This document shows positions 1-15,000 of a DNA stretch of 64,000 bases, piece by piece. The position numbers are program-made. Origin of the DNA: Nitrospiraceae bacterium (GTDB lineage: Bacteria > Nitrospirota > Nitrospiria > Nitrospirales > Nitrospiraceae); the NCBI GenBank assembly GCA_050246315.1, contig JBFWWG010000003.1, positions 1 through 64,000 on the forward strand, read 5' to 3'. The first letter of the stretch is position 1, and each line of letters begins with the position of its first letter.

Positions 1-3000
1 ACCATGCCCAGGCGCTGCGGGAGATCTTCGATCGTCTGGCCGGCTCGCTCAATGGAATCGCCGCGGTCGGCCATCGGGTGGTCCACGGAGGAGATCGCTT
101 CGTCGAGTCTACGATCATTTCCGAAGAAGTGGAGACCGGCATCGACTCGTTGTCCGTGTTGGCCCCGCTTCACAATCCTGCCTGTCTCGCAGGAATCCGT
201 GGAACCAGGGCGTTGCTGGGCTCCAAGCTGCCGATGGTCGCCGTGTTCGACACGGCCTTTCATCGGACCATGCCGGCCATCGCCAAGCAGTATGCGATTC
301 CAGGGGCACTGGCCGACCGGCATCGCATCAGTCGATACGGATTTCACGGGATCGCCCATGCATCGCTCGTACAGGGCTACGCGGCGGCGACGGAAACCCT
401 GCTGGAACGAGTCCGGGTGATTACGCTCCAGTTGGGGAATGGCTGCTCCATGACGGCCATTGCACAGGGCCGGTCGGTCGAAACCTCGATGGGCTTTACG
501 CCACTCGAGGGATTGGTGATGGGGACCCGTTCCGGCGATGTGGATGCCTCGATCGTGAGCTATCTGTCCGAGCGAGAACAGGTTGCTCCGGCCGAGGTCG
601 AACGGTGGCTCAACGAACGGTCGGGGCTTCTCGGCCTCTCAGGACGTTCACCGGACATGCGGGAGTTGATCCGGGCAGCCGAACAGGATCAGGATGGTCG
701 GGCCGAGTTCGCCATCGACCTGTTTTGTTATCGAGCGCGCAAGTATCTCGGCGCCTACCTCGCCGTGCTGGGCGGGGCCGATGCGGTCGTCTTTGGAGGC
801 GGAATCGGAGAGAACGCACCCGAGATTCGGACCCGAATCTGCCGGGATATGGACTGGTGCGGTCTGAAGCTCGATCCCAACCGGAACCGAGCATCGGTCG
901 GACTCGCGCCCGGTCAGGCCGCGCGGATCAGCATGGATAACTCGCGGCCGGCCGCCTATGTGGTCGCGGCGGACGAGGAAACCTGGATCGCCAGGGAGAC
1001 CGTCCGCTATGTGCGCGGAGCTCATTCATAGGCAGCAAGTGTTTTGCCCCTCACCCATCCCTCTCCCCGCGTGGGAGAGGCACAGCAAGAGGCGCGGGCC
1101 ACACAAGCAGGTTTCGGAAAAACTCGTTGTTCACCCTTTCGACAAGCTCAGGGCGAACGAAGACTTGCTAGAAATTACGCGTTTCCAGCGTCGGCGGTGA
1201 GCCTGTCGAACCACAAAATAAAGTGTTCCGCTGCCTGCGAGAAGGGCATTCATAACAAGACAAGGAGCGATCATGGAGAAACCGTTGTCGGACAAAGAAC
1301 TCAAGCTGATGGACGCCTACTGGCGCGCGGCCAATTATCTCTCGGTGGGGCAGATCTACCTGTATGACAACCCCTTGCTGAAAGAGCCATTAAAGAAGGA
1401 ACACATCAAACCCCGCCTGCTCGGGCACTGGGGGACGACGCCAGGGCTCAATTTCATCTACGTTCATCTGAACCGCATCATCAAGCAGCGGGACCTCAAC
1501 ATGATGTACATCATCGGCCCCGGCCATGGCGGGCCTGGGCTGGTGGCGAATGCCTATCTCGAACGTACCTACAGCGAGGTCTATCCGAACATCTCGCAGG
1601 ATGAAGAAGGCATGAAACGGTTGTTCAAACAGTTCTCCTTTCCAGGAGGTATCCCGAGCCACGTGGCGCCGGAAACCCCCGGCTCGATCCATGAAGGGGG
1701 AGAACTGGGGTATGCCGTCTCGCACGCCTATGGCGCCGCCTACGATAATCCTGACCTGACCGTCGCCTGCGTCGTCGGAGATGGTGAGGCGGAGACGGGA
1801 CCGCTGGCAACCGCTTGGCACTCCAACAAGTTCCTCAACCCCGCCACCGACGGCGCCGTGCTACCCATCCTGCACTTGAATGGCTACAAGATCGCCAACC
1901 CCTGCGTGCTGGCCCGCATCAGCCACGAGGAGTTGGAGCACCTCTTTCGCGGGTACGGGTATACGCCCCATTTCGTCGAGGGCCACGAGCCGGCCAAGAT
2001 GCATCAATTGATGGCTGCCACGCTCGAGACCTGCTTCGAAGACATCCGCCGAATTCAGACCCAGGCCAGAAAGAACGGAGTCAAGCAACGGCCGCGCTGG
2101 CCGATGATCATCCTCCGTTCGCCGAAAGGCTGGACCTGTCCGAAGGAAATCGACGGCAAGCGGACCGAGGATTACTGGCGGTCTCATCAGGTACCGATGG
2201 GCGAGATGCACGAGAAACCCGAGCATGTAAAGATCCTTGAGAAGTGGATGAAGAGTTACAAGCCGGATGAACTCTTCGATCAGTCCGACCGGTTGAGGCC
2301 GGAATTGGCCGAACTCGCCCCAAAGGCCGAGCGGCGCATGAGCGCCAATCCTCACGCCAACGGCGGGCTGTTGCTCAGAGATCTGCGCCTGCCGGATTTC
2401 CGCGACTATGCGATCAAGGTCACGAAACCCGGTTCTGTCATGGCCGAGTCCACCCGCCTCATGGGAAAGTTTCTACGGGACACGATGAAACTGAACATGG
2501 AGAGCGGGAACTTCCGCCTGTTCAGCCCCGACGAGAACAACTCGAACCGCTGGCAGGACGTCCTGGAGGTCACGGACCGTGCGTGGATGGCGGACCGCTA
2601 CCCGTACGACGACCACTTGGCGCCTGATGGACGAGTCATGGAGATGCTCAGCGAGCACCAGTGCCAAGGTTGGCTGGAGGGGTATCTCCTGACCGGCCGA
2701 CACGGATTCTTCTCCTGCTACGAAGCGTTCATTCACATCATCGACTCCATGTTCAACCAGCACGCCAAGTGGCTCAAGGTCTGCAACGACATCCCCTGGC
2801 GCCGGCCGATTGCCTCACTCAACTATCTGCTTAGCTCGCACGTCTGGCGGCAGGACCACAACGGTTTCAGCCACCAGGATCCGGGCTTTATCGACCATGT
2901 CGTCAACAAAAAGGCGGAGGTCGTGCGCGTCTATCTCCCGCCGGACGGGAACACGCTCCTGTCCGTCACCGACCACTGCCTACGCAGCCGCAATTACGTC

Positions 3001-12000: not shown

Positions 12001-15000
12001 CCCTCCGACCGCGAGAAAAGCCAGATGTATCTCCAGCGGTATATGCAGCATTTCCCGGCTGCGGGCGAAATTATCATCTGGGACCGGAGTTGGTACAACC
12101 GCGCCGGAGTCGAACACGTCATGGGCTTCTGCACAGAAGACCAGTACGAGGGCTTTCTCGAACATTGCTCGACGGTCGAGGGGTACGTCACGAGGGCCGG
12201 GATTATCCTGGTCAAATATTGGCTCGAAGTGAGTCACGAGGAGCAGCGGCGTCGTTTCCAAGCCCGTGTCGATGATCCCTTGCGCCAGTGGAAACTCAGC
12301 CCGATGGACCTGCCGTCACTTGAGAAATGGTACGAGTATTCCCGCGCACGCGATCGGATGCTGAAGGCCACGGACACGAAGCATGCCCCCTGGTACCTCA
12401 TACGATCGGACAATAAGCGAGCGGCGCGCCTCAACTGTATCAGCCATCTGCTCAGTCTGATTCCCTACAAGAAGGTGAAACGAGACAAGGTGAAACTCCC
12501 CAAACGATCCAACAAACACAAGTACGACGACCAGGCGACCTTGAAGGGACGACGGTTCGTCCCGGAAAAATATTGAACGGCCGAGCGAAAGGGAGGACAT
12601 CGACATACCGATCGCCGCGCCATCGTCTGCTCGGGCCACCTTCCGGCGAACCCATACCTTCACCCCTCGATTTTCATCGACGTTCAGCGTATTCTTCGTC
12701 CGGTCTTTGAGGGAGCGGTGCCTCGGCGACAGGGGATGACACCCGGATCGGCCGTCCCGATGCGTGTTGAAACGGCGTCGTCGAATCCGAGCCCATGATC
12801 GATCCGATGAATGACGAAGGAGCATGAAAGACGATGAGTCCAACCGGTGATACGCCCAGCGCCCATCCATCCTGGAAGGCCCTGAAGTCGCACCAGGAGC
12901 AGATCCGAGAGATCCATCTCCGCACCCTTTTTGCCAACGACCCGGATCGAGGCACGCGCATGACCGCCGAGGCCGCCGGTGTCGTTCTGGATTATTCGAA
13001 AAATCGCATCACGGACGACACGCTCAGGCTCCTGCTCCAACTGGCGGAGGAATCCGGGTTACGCGCTCGGATTGATGCGATGTTCAAGGGCAAGAAGATC
13101 AACGTCACGGAGAACCGGGCCGTGTTACACGTGGCGCTGCGCGCGCCGAGGGAATCGTCCATCGTGATCGACGGCGTCAATGTGGTGCCGCTGGTCCATG
13201 CCGTCCTCGACAAGATGACGGACTTCTGTAACCGGGTCAGAAGCGGCGCCTGGAAGGGTCACACCGGCAAGCGCATTCGACACGTGATCAATATCGGCAT
13301 CGGCGGGTCCGATTTGGGGCCGGTGATGGCCTATGAGGCGCTCAAGCACTACAGCGACCGCAGCATGACGTTCCGATTCGTGTCCAACGTCGACGGGACC
13401 GACTTGACGGAAGCCGTTCACGACTTTGATCCGTCGGAGACCCTCTTCATCGTATCCTCCAAGACCTTCACGACGTTGGAGACGATGACGAACGCCCACA
13501 GCGCGCGCGACTGGTCGCTGAAGGGGCTCGGAGGCGACGTGAACGCCGTGGCCAAGCATTTTGTCGCCGTCTCGACCAATGCGGCCGAAGTGAAGAAATT
13601 CGGCATCGACACCGTCAACATGTTCGAGTTCTGGGACTGGGTCGGGGGGCGCTATTCCATGGATTCGGCCATCGGTCTTTCGACCATGCTGGCCATCGGC
13701 CCCGAACAGTTTCGCAATATGCTGGCCGGCTTCCACCGGATGGACGAGCACTACCGGACCGCTCCGTTCGACCGCAACCTGCCGGTGCTCTTGGGGCTGC
13801 TCACCGTCTGGTACAACAACTTTTTCGACGCACAGACCGTGGCCATCCTGCCCTATGAACAGTACCTGAAACGATTTCCAGCCTATCTCCAACAGTTGAC
13901 CATGGAGAGCAACGGAAAGGGCGTGACACTCGATGGGAGCAAGGTCGGGTGCGAGACGAGTCCCATCTATTGGGGCGAGCCAGGCACCAACGGCCAGCAT
14001 TCCTTTTACCAACTGATCCATCAGGGTACCAAGCTGATTCCCTGCGACTTCATTGCGTTCACACACACGCTCAATCCGCTCGGCCGGCATCACGATTTGT
14101 TGCTGGCCAACATGTTCGCGCAGGGAGAAGCCCTCGCCTTCGGCAAAACCGCAGACCAGGTTCGAGCCGAAGGCTCGCCCGATTGGCTGGTCCCTCATCG
14201 GACCTTCGAGGGCAATCGCCCCTCCAACACCATCCTGCTCGACCGGCTCACGCCCGAATCGCTCGGCCAATTGATCGCCCTCTACGAGCACAGCGTCTTC
14301 ACCCAGGGCGTCATGTGGGGCGTCGATTCATTTGACCAATGGGGGGTCGAGCTGGGGAAGATTTTGTCCCAGCGCATCATTCCGGAATTAGAGCACCCGA
14401 CGGAGCCTCGGCTTGGGCATGATAGTTCCACGAATGCGCTGATTCGCCGCTATAGAGCAAGGAAATACACGTCATGAGTTTCCGCCAGACCAACGAAACC
14501 CCGCATACGCATCTGTACAGGCGGTTATCGGCCTCTGCCCAACACTTATGAGTCAACGCCCCTCGGCAGCACATACGATCAAGAACCGATTAGGCCTCGC
14601 GACGCTGCTCCTGGCTTGCACGTCCCTGCTGGCGGCCTGTGCCGGTTCGACTTCCGACCGACCTCCCGACGATTCCCAAGCGACGCGGATGTCCCGATTC
14701 AGAGCTCTCACGTACAACACCCTTCATGGACTGAACGTGGGCCGCTACTGGGTCAGACCCGGCGAAACGGACGAACAACGATCCGCGAGGGTGACGCTCC
14801 AAATCGAGGAGATGGCCCGAGTGGCGCCGGACGTCATGCTGCTCCAAGAAGTGAATCCGCTCCCTCACATGGCGGCCACCTACGTGGACGGGCTCCGAGC
14901 GCGCGGCCTTGCCTATCACGAGGTTCATCAGGTTGATGCCTGCGGGGTCAGGCCGCTCCCGGGAGTGGCGGTCGTCCCGGGATTGAATAATGGACTTGTC

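Follow-up and report, generated by a model that had tools for sequence, protein, structure and literature searches.

One of the closest described counterparts of the locus reported here is NapA of Desulfovibrio desulfuricans, a monomeric periplasmic nitrate reductase (PDB 2NAP, 2JIO) that is encoded in the operon napCMADGH. The gene order napA-cytochrome-small gene, which is found in the present locus, is not among the four nap operon types listed in the excerpt of a 2026 review (PMC13223375). For Nitrospira, excerpts of two papers report NarGHI, namely for LK70 (2020, PMC7078480) and, together with transcripts, for NOB01 (2024, PMC11327836), and in both NarGHI(J) is taken as an advantage under anoxia that was acquired horizontally from Proteobacteria. 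The LK70 paper, as excerpted, already ties anoxic glycogen or acetate metabolism (pta/ack) to nitrate respiration (PMC7078480), and a review passage citing Kits et al. 2017 states that a putative NAP of Candidatus Nitrospira inopinata might reduce nitrate (PMC6311188). The preliminary description of the DNA analyzed here had presented nitrate reduction independent of nitrite oxidoreductase (NXR) as new, which does not hold against these passages on NarGHI and NAP. Both kinds of nitrate reductase have been reported in the genus; new are the wiring to glycogen genes and the anatomy of the module. Our literature search turned up no account of the third gene, of the lipobox, or of the carbohydrate setting of the cassette.

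The analyzed window, i.e., the whole stretch of 64,000 nucleotides from contig JBFWWG010000003.1, belongs to a 30-contig draft genome of a Nitrospiraceae bacterium (GCA_050246315.1, hereafter G000), and all positions refer to this window. Gene content was assigned with Pfam and NCBIfam profiles. The following features were identified between positions 3 and 14477:

3..1031, + strand, acetate kinase (ack); Pfam Acetate_kinase 361.6 bits, profile positions 61-392
1273..3681, + strand, phosphoketolase (xfp); XFP_N, XFP, and XFP_C, NCBIfam phosphoketolase 1535 bits
3706..5805, + strand, glycogen debranching enzyme GlgX; TIGR02100 689.2 bits, cut-off 640.9
5865..8336, + strand, glycogen/maltodextrin phosphorylase GlgP; Pfam Phosphorylase 1008 bits, TIGR02093 1078 bits
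about 8343..11780, no strand assigned, insertion of 3.4 kb with the nap cassette; blastn and tblastn against G269, G270, and G271, alignment of the left edge
8434..10710, + strand, NapA, monomeric-type periplasmic nitrate reductase; phmmer 821 bits to 2JIO/2NAP
10726..11448, + strand, tetrahaem c-type cytochrome of the NapC/NirT/NrfH family; Pfam Cytochrom_NNT 39.8, cut-off 24.1
11477..11716, + strand, small two-helix membrane protein of 79 amino acids; two hydrophobic segments, conserved third cassette gene
11794..12576, + strand, polyphosphate kinase 2 (PPK2); TIGR03707 352.7 bits, cut-off 301.8
12834..14477, + strand, glucose-6-phosphate isomerase (PGI); NF001211 847 bits, cut-off 492

All genes from ack to pgi thus point in one direction, with intergenic gaps of 15-257 nt, and both profiles and strands agree with the co-directional string first described, in which nap genes lie amid those for acetate kinase, phosphoketolase, GlgX, phosphorylase, PPK2, and PGI. 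The 5' end of ack is missing at the contig start; in relatives the string begins with ack, and in G270 and G271 this gene is complete, with a phosphofructokinase gene lying divergently upstream. The glgP gene starts with the ATG at 5865, which is preceded by a GGAG motif. Phosphoketolase was found at E ≤ 1e-100 in 274 of the 370 other genomes of the family (a count that includes G058, flagged unpublished), and xfp is a native, widespread Nitrospiraceae gene. The native Nitrospira string is ack-xfp-glgX-glgP-ppk2-pgi.

In G269, which belongs to the same genus, glgP and ppk2 are 90 nt apart, whereas 3.4 kb lie between them in G000. Homology to G269 ends a few bases past the glgP stop codon and restarts 13 nt before the GTG of ppk2, leaving the stop codon and the ppk2 ribosome-binding site untouched. 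Since the insertion is precisely intergenic, ppk2 and pgi now lie behind the cassette. Its GC content is 0.602, that of the flanks 0.609 and 0.598. No terminal repeats of the insertion were found, and a scan for terminator-like intergenic sites on the + strand, which performed at chance level, yielded none. The cassette is missing from G269 and from G271 of the same genus. G270, the closest relative at 97-98% nucleotide identity, has this insertion too, though in a decayed form: two deletions (corresponding to window 8504-9563 and about 10028-11432) destroyed napA and removed the cytochrome gene. The region 8343-11780 is best explained as a mobile three-gene cassette predicted to encode a membrane-attached quinol:nitrate oxidoreductase.

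The NapA of this cassette shares with the D. desulfuricans enzyme the size class, the domain order, Tat export, and the lack of NapB. The phmmer alignment of the two covers query residues 75-782, and the four [4Fe-4S] cysteines as well as the cysteine aligned to chain residue 140 (the Mo-ligand cysteine) are kept. The Tat signal, read directly from the N-terminus, is GLTRRELTRYLG. Unlike the D. desulfuricans protein, the Nitrospira NapA has a conserved lipobox (LVGC) behind this signal, and x-[ASTV]-G-C occurs in 22 of the 26 orthologue N-termini that reach this position; NapA is therefore probably lipid-anchored. The genes napD, napM, napG, and napH of the D. desulfuricans operon are lacking in the cassette, neither NapB nor NapD was found in G000, and the partners are instead a two-helix tetrahaem cytochrome and a small membrane protein. 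NapA orthologues of at least 69% identity occur in 20 of the 370 other family genomes, which reproduces the earlier count.

The cytochrome carries CxxCH motifs at residues 108, 144, 190, and 220, and a 23-row alignment showed CxxCHxM, K103, H133, H166, H206, and H228 to be invariant. It resembles NrfH, NapC, and CymA in its Cytochrom_NNT domain, the four haem motifs, the membrane anchor, the position of its gene beside that of a periplasmic reductase, and CxxCHxM at the first haem, which we take to be the NrfH signature. However, while those proteins have one helix, the Nitrospira cytochrome has two predicted transmembrane helices (hydrophobic segments at about 43-65 and 77-97) together with a signal-like N-terminal segment, and it has a dedicated small partner protein. 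Only Cytochrom_NNT of Pfam passed; the NrfH and NapC equivalog models failed (42.8 against 134.2 and 28.8 against 349), and a phmmer search against solved structures gave no match. The four haem motifs and the family named in the preliminary description are thus right, but the protein is a two-helix variant of the NrfH/NapC family rather than a plain NapC. We regard it as a putative quinol dehydrogenase. A 70%-identical cytochrome of N. inopinata is named “NapC/NirT family cytochrome c” by NCBI; G000 differs in that its cassette lies inside the glycogen string and co-occurs with NarGHJI.

Both napA and the cytochrome gene had been noted before as a pair, but the unit comprises three genes, as the one at 11477-11716 had been overlooked. 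All 22 loci examined, 11 of them from Nitrospirota and 11 from other phyla, have a similar ORF behind the cytochrome gene. The 79-amino-acid protein had no Pfam match at the cut-off and, as judged from its sequence, belongs to no known family. In a complex model, the protein lies against the helices of the cytochrome with an ipSAE of 0.92 (best of three controls 0.00). Of the solved complexes, 116 of 157 attain the mark applied, as against 2 of 215 mismatched pairs, a calibration that is approximate, own alignments having been used. The model runs share at least 95% of contacts, and the partner pLDDT is at least 92.

In order to place the cassette within the nitrogen metabolism of its host, we considered the remaining enzymes of G000. 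The genes narG, narH, narJ, and narI on contig C2 all exceed their NCBIfam equivalog cut-offs, as had been reported for narG, narH, and narI, and the occurrence of Nitr_red_alph_N in 12 of 370 genomes was likewise obtained again. The nar genes encode the same kind of E. coli-type membrane enzyme as in Nitrospira sp. LK70, HKST-UBA10, and NOB01. Among 371 family genomes, NarG and intact NapA occur together in G000 only, G270 having NarG and the decayed cassette. No NxrA or NxrB, not even a fragment, was found in the G000 assembly; by synteny, the two NxrA loci of the closed same-genus genome G271 fall exactly at the ends of contigs C1, C28, and C24, which fits the earlier view that NXR was left unassembled. 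By inference, the host has NXR and would be a nitrite oxidizer. No AMO gene was found in G000. NrfA was not found either and a NirK-like gene is present, so nitrite is the likely end product.

The gene neighborhood was compared in those 24 Nitrospirota loci for which the upstream sequence extends over 5 kb or more. By a carbohydrate marker set picked after the loci had been viewed, the cassette lies beside carbohydrate genes in 9 of these 24, in three arrangements: behind zwf of glgX-glgP-ppk2-tkt-gnd-zwf (five loci), beside HAD-GH65 (two loci, one also with pta-ack), and between glgP and ppk2 (two loci). On a quick tree of NapA the three arrangements fall on separate branches. Hence, against the caution that the placement is not shared by the five relatives read, the carbohydrate link does recur among relatives, in other arrangements. 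The commonest context is a mog/moaB-like gene (8/24 loci). Upstream of napA, inspection by eye of 17 loci revealed no shared regulatory motif.

RNA-library contigs from three studies extend over the cassette and across its junctions: X17 record 16 (8253-8765) spans glgP/napA with 0 differences, X17 record 18 (10134-11174) spans napA/cytochrome, and X19 record 26 (11329-11716) as well as X16 record 11 (11021-11488) span the cytochrome gene and the small gene. This evidence consists of contigs, DNA can contaminate RNA libraries, and a contig spanning two genes is no proof of a single transcript; the cassette is probably read together with the glycogen string. The intact region 7600-12600 is present at 0.96 or more of sampled words in 14 runs marked “DNA?” from six studies, with seven flagged as possible sources. 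Two RNA libraries are dominated by the deleted form seen in G270 (depth 60-75 versus 3-7 for the intact one), which together with the decay in G270 indicates weak or conditional selection for the cassette in this lineage.

We see about an even chance that the cassette, having landed in the glgP-ppk2 gap, serves to oxidize stored sugar with nitrate when oxygen is lacking. Its parts would be a Tat-exported, probably lipid-anchored monomeric NapA, a quinol-oxidizing tetrahaem cytochrome, and a small subunit packed on the anchor. Without oxygen, stored glycogen would be phosphorolyzed and oxidized, NAD(P)H from oxidative pentose-phosphate, GAPDH, and pyruvate steps would feed NADH dehydrogenases and thus quinol, and Nap would pass the electrons to periplasmic nitrate, yielding nitrite. 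Carbon would leave as acetyl-phosphate and acetate, with ATP formed via phosphoketolase and acetate kinase; Nap would be non-electrogenic, and substrate-level phosphorylation and complex I would supply the energy. The enzymes named in the preliminary description are correct. Taken by itself, the phosphoketolase route to acetate is redox-neutral, so that Nap must draw its electrons from the oxidative pentose-phosphate, GAPDH, or pyruvate steps and not from the phosphoketolase split. As counterpoints, the phosphoketolase cycle can run on its own without an electron sink, and Nap is redundant for nitrate reduction given NarGHJI and, by inference, NXR. The gene set resembles heterolactic phosphoketolase catabolism, from glycogen to glucose-6-phosphate, via zwf/gnd into pentose phosphates, and via phosphoketolase and acetyl-phosphate to acetate kinase. 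Lactic acid bacteria supplied with an external acceptor can convert acetyl-phosphate to acetate and gain extra ATP; here nitrate would take that part, reached via quinol and Nap, in a chemolithoautotroph that uses its own storage polymer.

It might also be that the enzyme is a real nitrate reductase whose glycogen placement is a recent, near-neutral landing of a mobile unit, uncoupled from glycogen use. The cassette is found in no fewer than five contexts, is decayed in G270, and is missing from G269 and G271. At one locus (L043) it is preceded by a fragment of an IS1595 transposase and followed by a remnant of the 3' end of mog/moaB, in G023 it is present twice, with a phage-type integrase near one of the copies, and the mog/CBS site of G000 itself is empty. 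Nevertheless, we consider such a landing rather unlikely, as the cassette adjoins genes of storage carbohydrates, of the oxidative pentose-phosphate pathway, or of acetyl-phosphate in three separate arrangements, neither the glgP stop codon nor the ppk2 ribosome-binding site is disrupted by the insertion, the intact form is found in runs of several studies, and it also occurs in the RNA libraries of three. Some heterotrophs use Nap as a redox valve. A role of this kind under oxic or micro-oxic conditions, or the supply of nitrite for nitrogen assimilation or as NXR substrate when oxygen returns, would suit a periplasmic NrfH-type enzyme, from which, going by the family, energy conservation is not expected; it would also agree with nitrite as end product and with a molybdenum-cofactor gene, not a sugar gene, as the commonest neighbor. 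However, the carbohydrate context recurs and nitrite is already obtainable from NXR reversal and NAR, so these purposes appear improbable to us, although sequence alone cannot tell these roles apart.

Compared with these readings, the chance that the molybdoenzyme acts on another substrate (chlorate, selenate, or another oxyanion) or is a formate dehydrogenase is very small. It is true that NapA stays under both NCBIfam NapA equivalog cut-offs (611 against 904 and 587 against 930.55) and that the Fdh-alpha model matches with 546 bits, but in our reading the equivalog models rest on the larger heterodimeric NapA, the solved NapA scores twice as high as the best formate dehydrogenase (821 versus 410 bits), and the cysteine ligand and Tat export suit NapA. 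That the nap genes are foreign to this genome through binning or assembly is hardly conceivable: although the assembly is a draft and the related G270 has 9% contamination, the cassette lies within one contig, its native flanks share synteny, at 79-98% identity, with three genomes of the genus, its GC content equals that of the flanks, and its junctions are present in many independent runs.

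The preliminary description had listed the genes at positions 3-14477, together with narGHJI on contig C2 of the same genome, and gene calls as well as Pfam and NCBIfam scores bore out this gene content. The nap genes had been presented as a pair; napA and the cytochrome gene were found as described, and a third gene, absent from that list, lies at 11477-11716.

Genes of the string, narGHJI, and the decayed form of the insertion in the nearest relative
3-1031, + strand: acetate kinase (ack), 5' end cut by the contig start
1273-3681, + strand: phosphoketolase (xfp)
3706-5805, + strand: GlgX
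5865-8336, + strand: glycogen phosphorylase (glgP)
8434-10710, + strand: NapA-type molybdoenzyme
10726-11448, + strand: tetrahaem cytochrome
11477-11716, + strand: small 79-aa membrane protein with two hydrophobic helices, directly behind the cytochrome
11794-12576, + strand: PPK2
12834-14477, + strand: glucose-6-phosphate isomerase (pgi)
Contig C2, ~176.7-183.3 kb, - strand: narGHJI, four adjacent subunits on one strand
Contig C20 of genome G270, locus L091 13344-14260: decayed insertion, equivalent to window 8343-11780

The named enzymes from ack to pgi are separated by intergenic gaps of 15-257 nt. In the nearest relative (G270) and in a closed genome of the same genus (G271), the string opens with ack, upstream of which lies a divergently oriented phosphofructokinase gene; any promoter of the string therefore lies beyond the start of the window. 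Scans of 1-16000 returned 3 promoter-like sites (4.3 expected) and 13 terminator-like sites (11.9 expected), none of them in a + strand gap; both numbers are at chance level and carry no weight either way. Phosphoketolase is encoded in 274 of the 370 other Nitrospiraceae genomes, a count that includes the unpublished genome G058. In the library searched, only nine papers name both Nitrospira and phosphoketolase; one of them assigns the enzyme to an anammox bacterium.

The product of the gene at 8434-10710 has the domain order Molybdop_Fe4S4 - Molybdopterin - Molydop_binding (52.8, 229.3, and 102.1 bits, each above the Pfam cut-off). Its residues 75-782 align to the monomeric NapA of D. desulfuricans (2JIO) with 821 bits, whereby the next-best solved relatives are NapA proteins of the heterodimer type (~500 bits) and formate dehydrogenases (~410 bits). 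In the alignment to 2JIO all four N-terminal [4Fe-4S] cysteines (CxxCxxxC...C) are kept, and the PRLCMASAV cysteine, the presumed Mo ligand, falls opposite residue 140 of the chain. Starting from the ATG at 8434, the N-terminus MSENPDEPNGLTRRELTRYLGASFGLACLSPLVGCG comprises a twin-arginine motif, read directly from the sequence as GLTRRELTRYLG, followed by a lipobox. The arginine pair is kept in orthologues. The lipobox (x-[ASTV]-G-C) is present in 22 of the 26 orthologue N-termini that reach this position, including sequences from Acidobacteriota, Armatimonadota, Salinibacteraceae, and Oscillochloris, and is missing in the other four, which come from Poribacteria (one), Bacteroidota (two), and Desulfobacterales (one). 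The protein stays below the NCBIfam equivalog cut-offs (NF010055, 610.9 against 904; TIGR01706, 587.1 against 930.55) with a match split into three stretches, which we attribute to the fact that these models represent the larger heterodimeric enzymes. The genome yielded no match to NapB (PF03892) and none above the cut-off to NapD. Judged by its sequence, NapA belongs to the monomeric class of periplasmic nitrate reductases and has putative nitrate-reducing activity. In a quick tree with SH-aLRT support, the Nitrospirota NapA proteins form one clade (SH-aLRT 99), with Acidobacteriota and a mixed group as its sister.

The cytochrome scores above the gathering threshold of Pfam Cytochrom_NNT and contains four CxxCH motifs, the first of which is CxxCHxM. 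It falls below the NrfH and NapC equivalogs (TIGR03153, 42.8 against 134.2; NF007906, 28.8 against 349), and a phmmer search against solved structures gave no match below E = 0.75. NapC/NirT/NrfH quinol dehydrogenases have a single N-terminal transmembrane helix, whereas two membrane helices (~43-65 and ~77-97) follow a signal-like segment here and are kept in 23 aligned sequences. All 22 loci that were inspected, of which 11 belong to Nitrospirota and 11 to other phyla, had an ORF resembling the small protein behind the cytochrome gene; the small protein itself has no Pfam match with E up to 10. A complex model of the cytochrome with the small protein scored 0.92, compared to 0.00 for the best of three controls. 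Of 157 solved complexes, 116 come up to the mark applied to this score, as do 2 of 215 mismatched pairs; these counts are only a rough guide here, as the model was built with alignments of our own. The model runs agreed in at least 95% of contacts, partner pLDDT was at least 92, and the modelled interface places both helices of the cytochrome against both of the small protein. The model supports, short of demonstrating, binding between the two predicted membrane proteins. According to a 2026 review, four types of nap operon are distinguished, namely napEDABC, napDAGHB, napCMADGH, and napAGHBFLD (PMC13223375). The order napA-cytochrome-small gene lies outside these four types.

The three genes form a cassette that is extra to the string. 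In the same-genus genome G269, ack-xfp-glgX-glgP is followed after 90 nt by ppk2-pgi and by the same downstream genes as in the window. The G269 homology ends a few bases past the glgP stop and restarts 13 nt before the ppk2 start codon, which leaves ~3.4 kb (8343-11780) as additional sequence. In G271, the string consists of ack-xfp-pgi. Hence, the host string is native and the cassette alone is the newcomer. The GC content of the insertion equals that of its flanks, and no terminal direct or inverted repeats were detected at its edges, where all repeats found are short and chance-like. G270, which is 97-98% identical to the window at the nucleotide level, carries the same insertion minus 8504-9563 and ~10028-11432. 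What is left there encodes NapA residues 1-50 and 405-558 and an intact small protein; the cytochrome gene is gone and napA is a pseudogene. Both deletion joints were recovered in contigs of the RNA libraries X15 and X16, which belong to another data set, at a depth of 60-75, and the intact form occurs in the same libraries at a depth of 3-7 with no differences. The deletions are therefore real and both alleles co-exist.

The surroundings of the cassette were tallied for those 24 Nitrospirota loci in which the upstream sequence extends over 5 kb or more; the marker genes were chosen after the loci had been seen, and related loci are not independent. In eight loci, a mog/moaB-like gene lies just upstream and CBS/PhzF genes lie downstream of the cassette. 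In five loci, glgX-glgP-ppk2-tkt-gnd-zwf immediately precedes the cassette and shares its strand; public records list a strain T9 with this zwf-napA arrangement. Two loci have a divergent HAD-GH65 pair next to the cassette, one of them also with DUF3141-pta-ack. The placement between glgP and ppk2 is found in the window and in G270, and in the remaining seven loci the surroundings differ from all of these. In the NapA quick tree, the three placements linked to carbohydrate genes fall on different branches, which contradicts the earlier caveat that relatives do not share the carbohydrate link. The mog/CBS/PhzF site, which holds a nap cassette in those eight other loci, is empty here (C3:121796-124151, same contig, outside the window), with ~150 nt between CBS and mog and no relic of a mog/moaB 3' end. 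Such a relic was found behind the cassette in one (L043) of four mog-associated loci tested, where a transposase fragment lies in front. Inspection by eye of the region upstream of napA in 17 loci revealed no common motif, be it FNR-like, CRP-like, or other. One further family genome, G023, contains two full three-gene cassettes (C24:331754-334042 and C34:51430-53718 of that genome; loci L101 and L102), whose NapA proteins are 88 and 87% identical to that of the window; one copy lies ~4 kb from a phage-type integrase gene.

All four subunits of NarGHJI score above their NCBIfam equivalogs (narG, 1987.8 against 1084; narH, 875.6 against 524; narJ, 107.2 against 59; narI, 225.5 against 105.6). 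No narK adjoins the cluster, and the best NarK-like gene of the genome, on contig C14, is below the cut-off. Behind narI on the same strand lie a pyridine-nucleotide-disulphide oxidoreductase-like gene and, 2.6 kb off, a glucose-6-phosphate dehydrogenase (zwf) paralogue (TIGR00871, 465 bits against a cut-off of 400.6), so that narGHJI, too, may be tied to sugar genes. A PAS/HisKA_3 sensor kinase is encoded near these narI-side genes; the regions concerned are C2:172707-176700 (locus L002 687-5093) and C2:169364-171559 (locus L104 13364-15559). The counts reported earlier were reproduced: NapA orthologues of at least 69% identity occur in 20 and the NarG N-terminal domain in 12 of the 370 other family genomes. 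The two sets overlap only in G270, with its napA pseudogene, so that, among 371 genomes, NarG and an intact NapA come together only in the one studied here.

The 4.39-Mb assembly (30 contigs, completeness 100) encodes six molybdopterin enzymes, and NxrA is not among them. NxrB was not found in it, and tblastn with the relatives' NxrA frames matched NarG only (25% identity). In G271, three frames are of the NxrA type and carry Tat signals. Two of these copies are neighbours, and their flanks match the first 13.5 kb of contig C1 up to its start, the whole of C28, and the start of C24, and the contig ends C1:1-381, C28 (all 4586 bp), and C24:1-1116 lie at these two tandem loci. The third G271 locus is missing from the unbroken syntenic site (C17:41743-43683). 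As the contigs break exactly at the two tandem NXR loci, the earlier view that NXR is present but unassembled is supported. No AMO gene was found in the genome. A NirK-like gene is present and NrfA is not, so nitrite, or NO, would be the expected product of nitrate reduction.

Words sampled from 7600-12600 were recovered to at least 0.96 in 14 sequencing runs that bear the mark 'DNA?' and come from six studies (landfill, bioreactor, wastewater); seven of these runs are flagged as possible sources. Among the runs recorded as RNA, six from three studies contained 0.38-0.75 of the sampled words; RNA runs X21-X24 contained next to none, which is no sign of silence. RNA-library contigs that match 1-16000 with 0-2 differences cover napA, the cytochrome gene, and the small gene in intact form and bridge the glgP/napA, napA/cytochrome, and cytochrome/small gene junctions. 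These contigs show presence in RNA libraries and cannot show one molecule from ack to pgi.

An NXR-independent nitrate reductase in Nitrospira had been put forward as new, but is already known. NarGHI(J) is described for Nitrospira LK70 in 2020, along with the idea of anoxic glycogen/acetate metabolism and nitrate respiration (PMC7078480), and for NOB01 in 2024 with transcripts, HKST-UBA10 being named as a further case (PMC11327836); a review mentions a putative NAP of N. inopinata, citing Kits et al. 2017 (PMC6311188). An NCBI-named cytochrome from N. inopinata, which has a related cassette, is 70% identical to that of the window. A search outside subscription journals and the supplements of these papers turned up no literature that describes the carbohydrate context, the lipobox, the third gene of the nap unit, or phosphoketolase in Nitrospira. 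The initial observation holds, and the locus has more structure than was first described. What is new is a compact Nap module of three subunits that is inserted into the glycogen/phosphoketolase string and is found repeatedly beside storage-carbohydrate genes, together with the co-occurrence of module and NAR in this genome alone.

As to function, we consider the chances about even that the cassette serves as a nitrate sink for anoxic glycogen use. From what is known of the families, NapA would be exported folded by Tat and anchored by lipid at the membrane, the cytochrome and small subunit would oxidise quinol and pass electrons to NapA, and periplasmic nitrate would be reduced to nitrite without charge separation. 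The scheme first proposed, in which stored glycogen is split via phosphoketolase while Nap takes up the electrons, needs correction: its enzymes are present, but the phosphoketolase cleavage of sugar phosphates to acetyl-phosphate is redox-neutral and is no electron source. Electrons in need of a sink would rather come from the glucose-6-phosphate and 6-phosphogluconate dehydrogenases, from GAPDH, or from pyruvate oxidation; the tkt-gnd-zwf genes that precede the cassette in five relatives match such steps in kind. With nitrate as the sink, carbon could leave as acetate via acetyl-phosphate with a gain of ATP, and complex I could contribute proton motive force.

It might also be that a mobile cassette landed in the string in a nearly neutral way, which seems rather unlikely to us, though it deserves serious weight. 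The decay in G270 and the deleted allele speak against the cassette being under selection that is both strong and constant in a lineage that also keeps NarGHJI; the carbohydrate-linked placements on separate branches, on the other hand, argue against such a landing. Another physiological role of Nap is distinctly less probable, and the little probability left falls to a different substrate or an artefact. The nitrate-sink reading can be extended to a general proposal, which we hold as tentative and somewhat unlikely in its entirety: an unclassified three-subunit Nap would combine a monomeric, lipid-anchored NapA with a tetrahaem quinol dehydrogenase that is NrfH-like but has two helices, and a small subunit would bring the membrane bundle to four helices. 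As one module it would exist in several phyla, and Nitrospira would have drawn it into storage-carbohydrate strings on at least three separate occasions. Nitrate would then be a dedicated sink for anoxic oxidation of endogenous glycogen, and the nitrite oxidiser would reverse its own nitrogen step by a separate enzyme under carbon-storage control.

In wastewater plants and in many soils and waters, nitrite is oxidised mainly by Nitrospira. Their survival and activity in anoxic phases bear on nitrite accumulation, on the supply to anammox, and on N2O precursors. A nitrate reductase among glycogen/phosphoketolase genes offers a concrete route by which cells could maintain themselves on stored carbon and nitrate under anoxia; if this is true, some Nitrospira would give nitrite back to the system once aeration stops. 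The three-gene module is missing from current lists of nap operons and would offer biochemistry a compact, putative quinol:nitrate reductase.

Some further genes were noted. Downstream of pgi, 14548-20408 encodes an endonuclease/exonuclease/phosphatase-family protein, two proteins without a family, and an 818-aa MscS-like channel. This set is kept in same-genus genomes, and paralogues of its first two genes lie on contig C20 of the source genome. A second acetate kinase is encoded at C1:593280-597755 together with phosphate acetyltransferase and a DUF3141 protein; in one relative (L047) such a trio lies a few kb from a nap cassette. At C13:3066-6536 (locus L001), NuoG/HoxU-like N-terminal domains are fused to a long formate dehydrogenase alpha subunit; this gene adjoins a NuoF-like one and lies upstream of a cluster for the pyruvate dehydrogenase complex.
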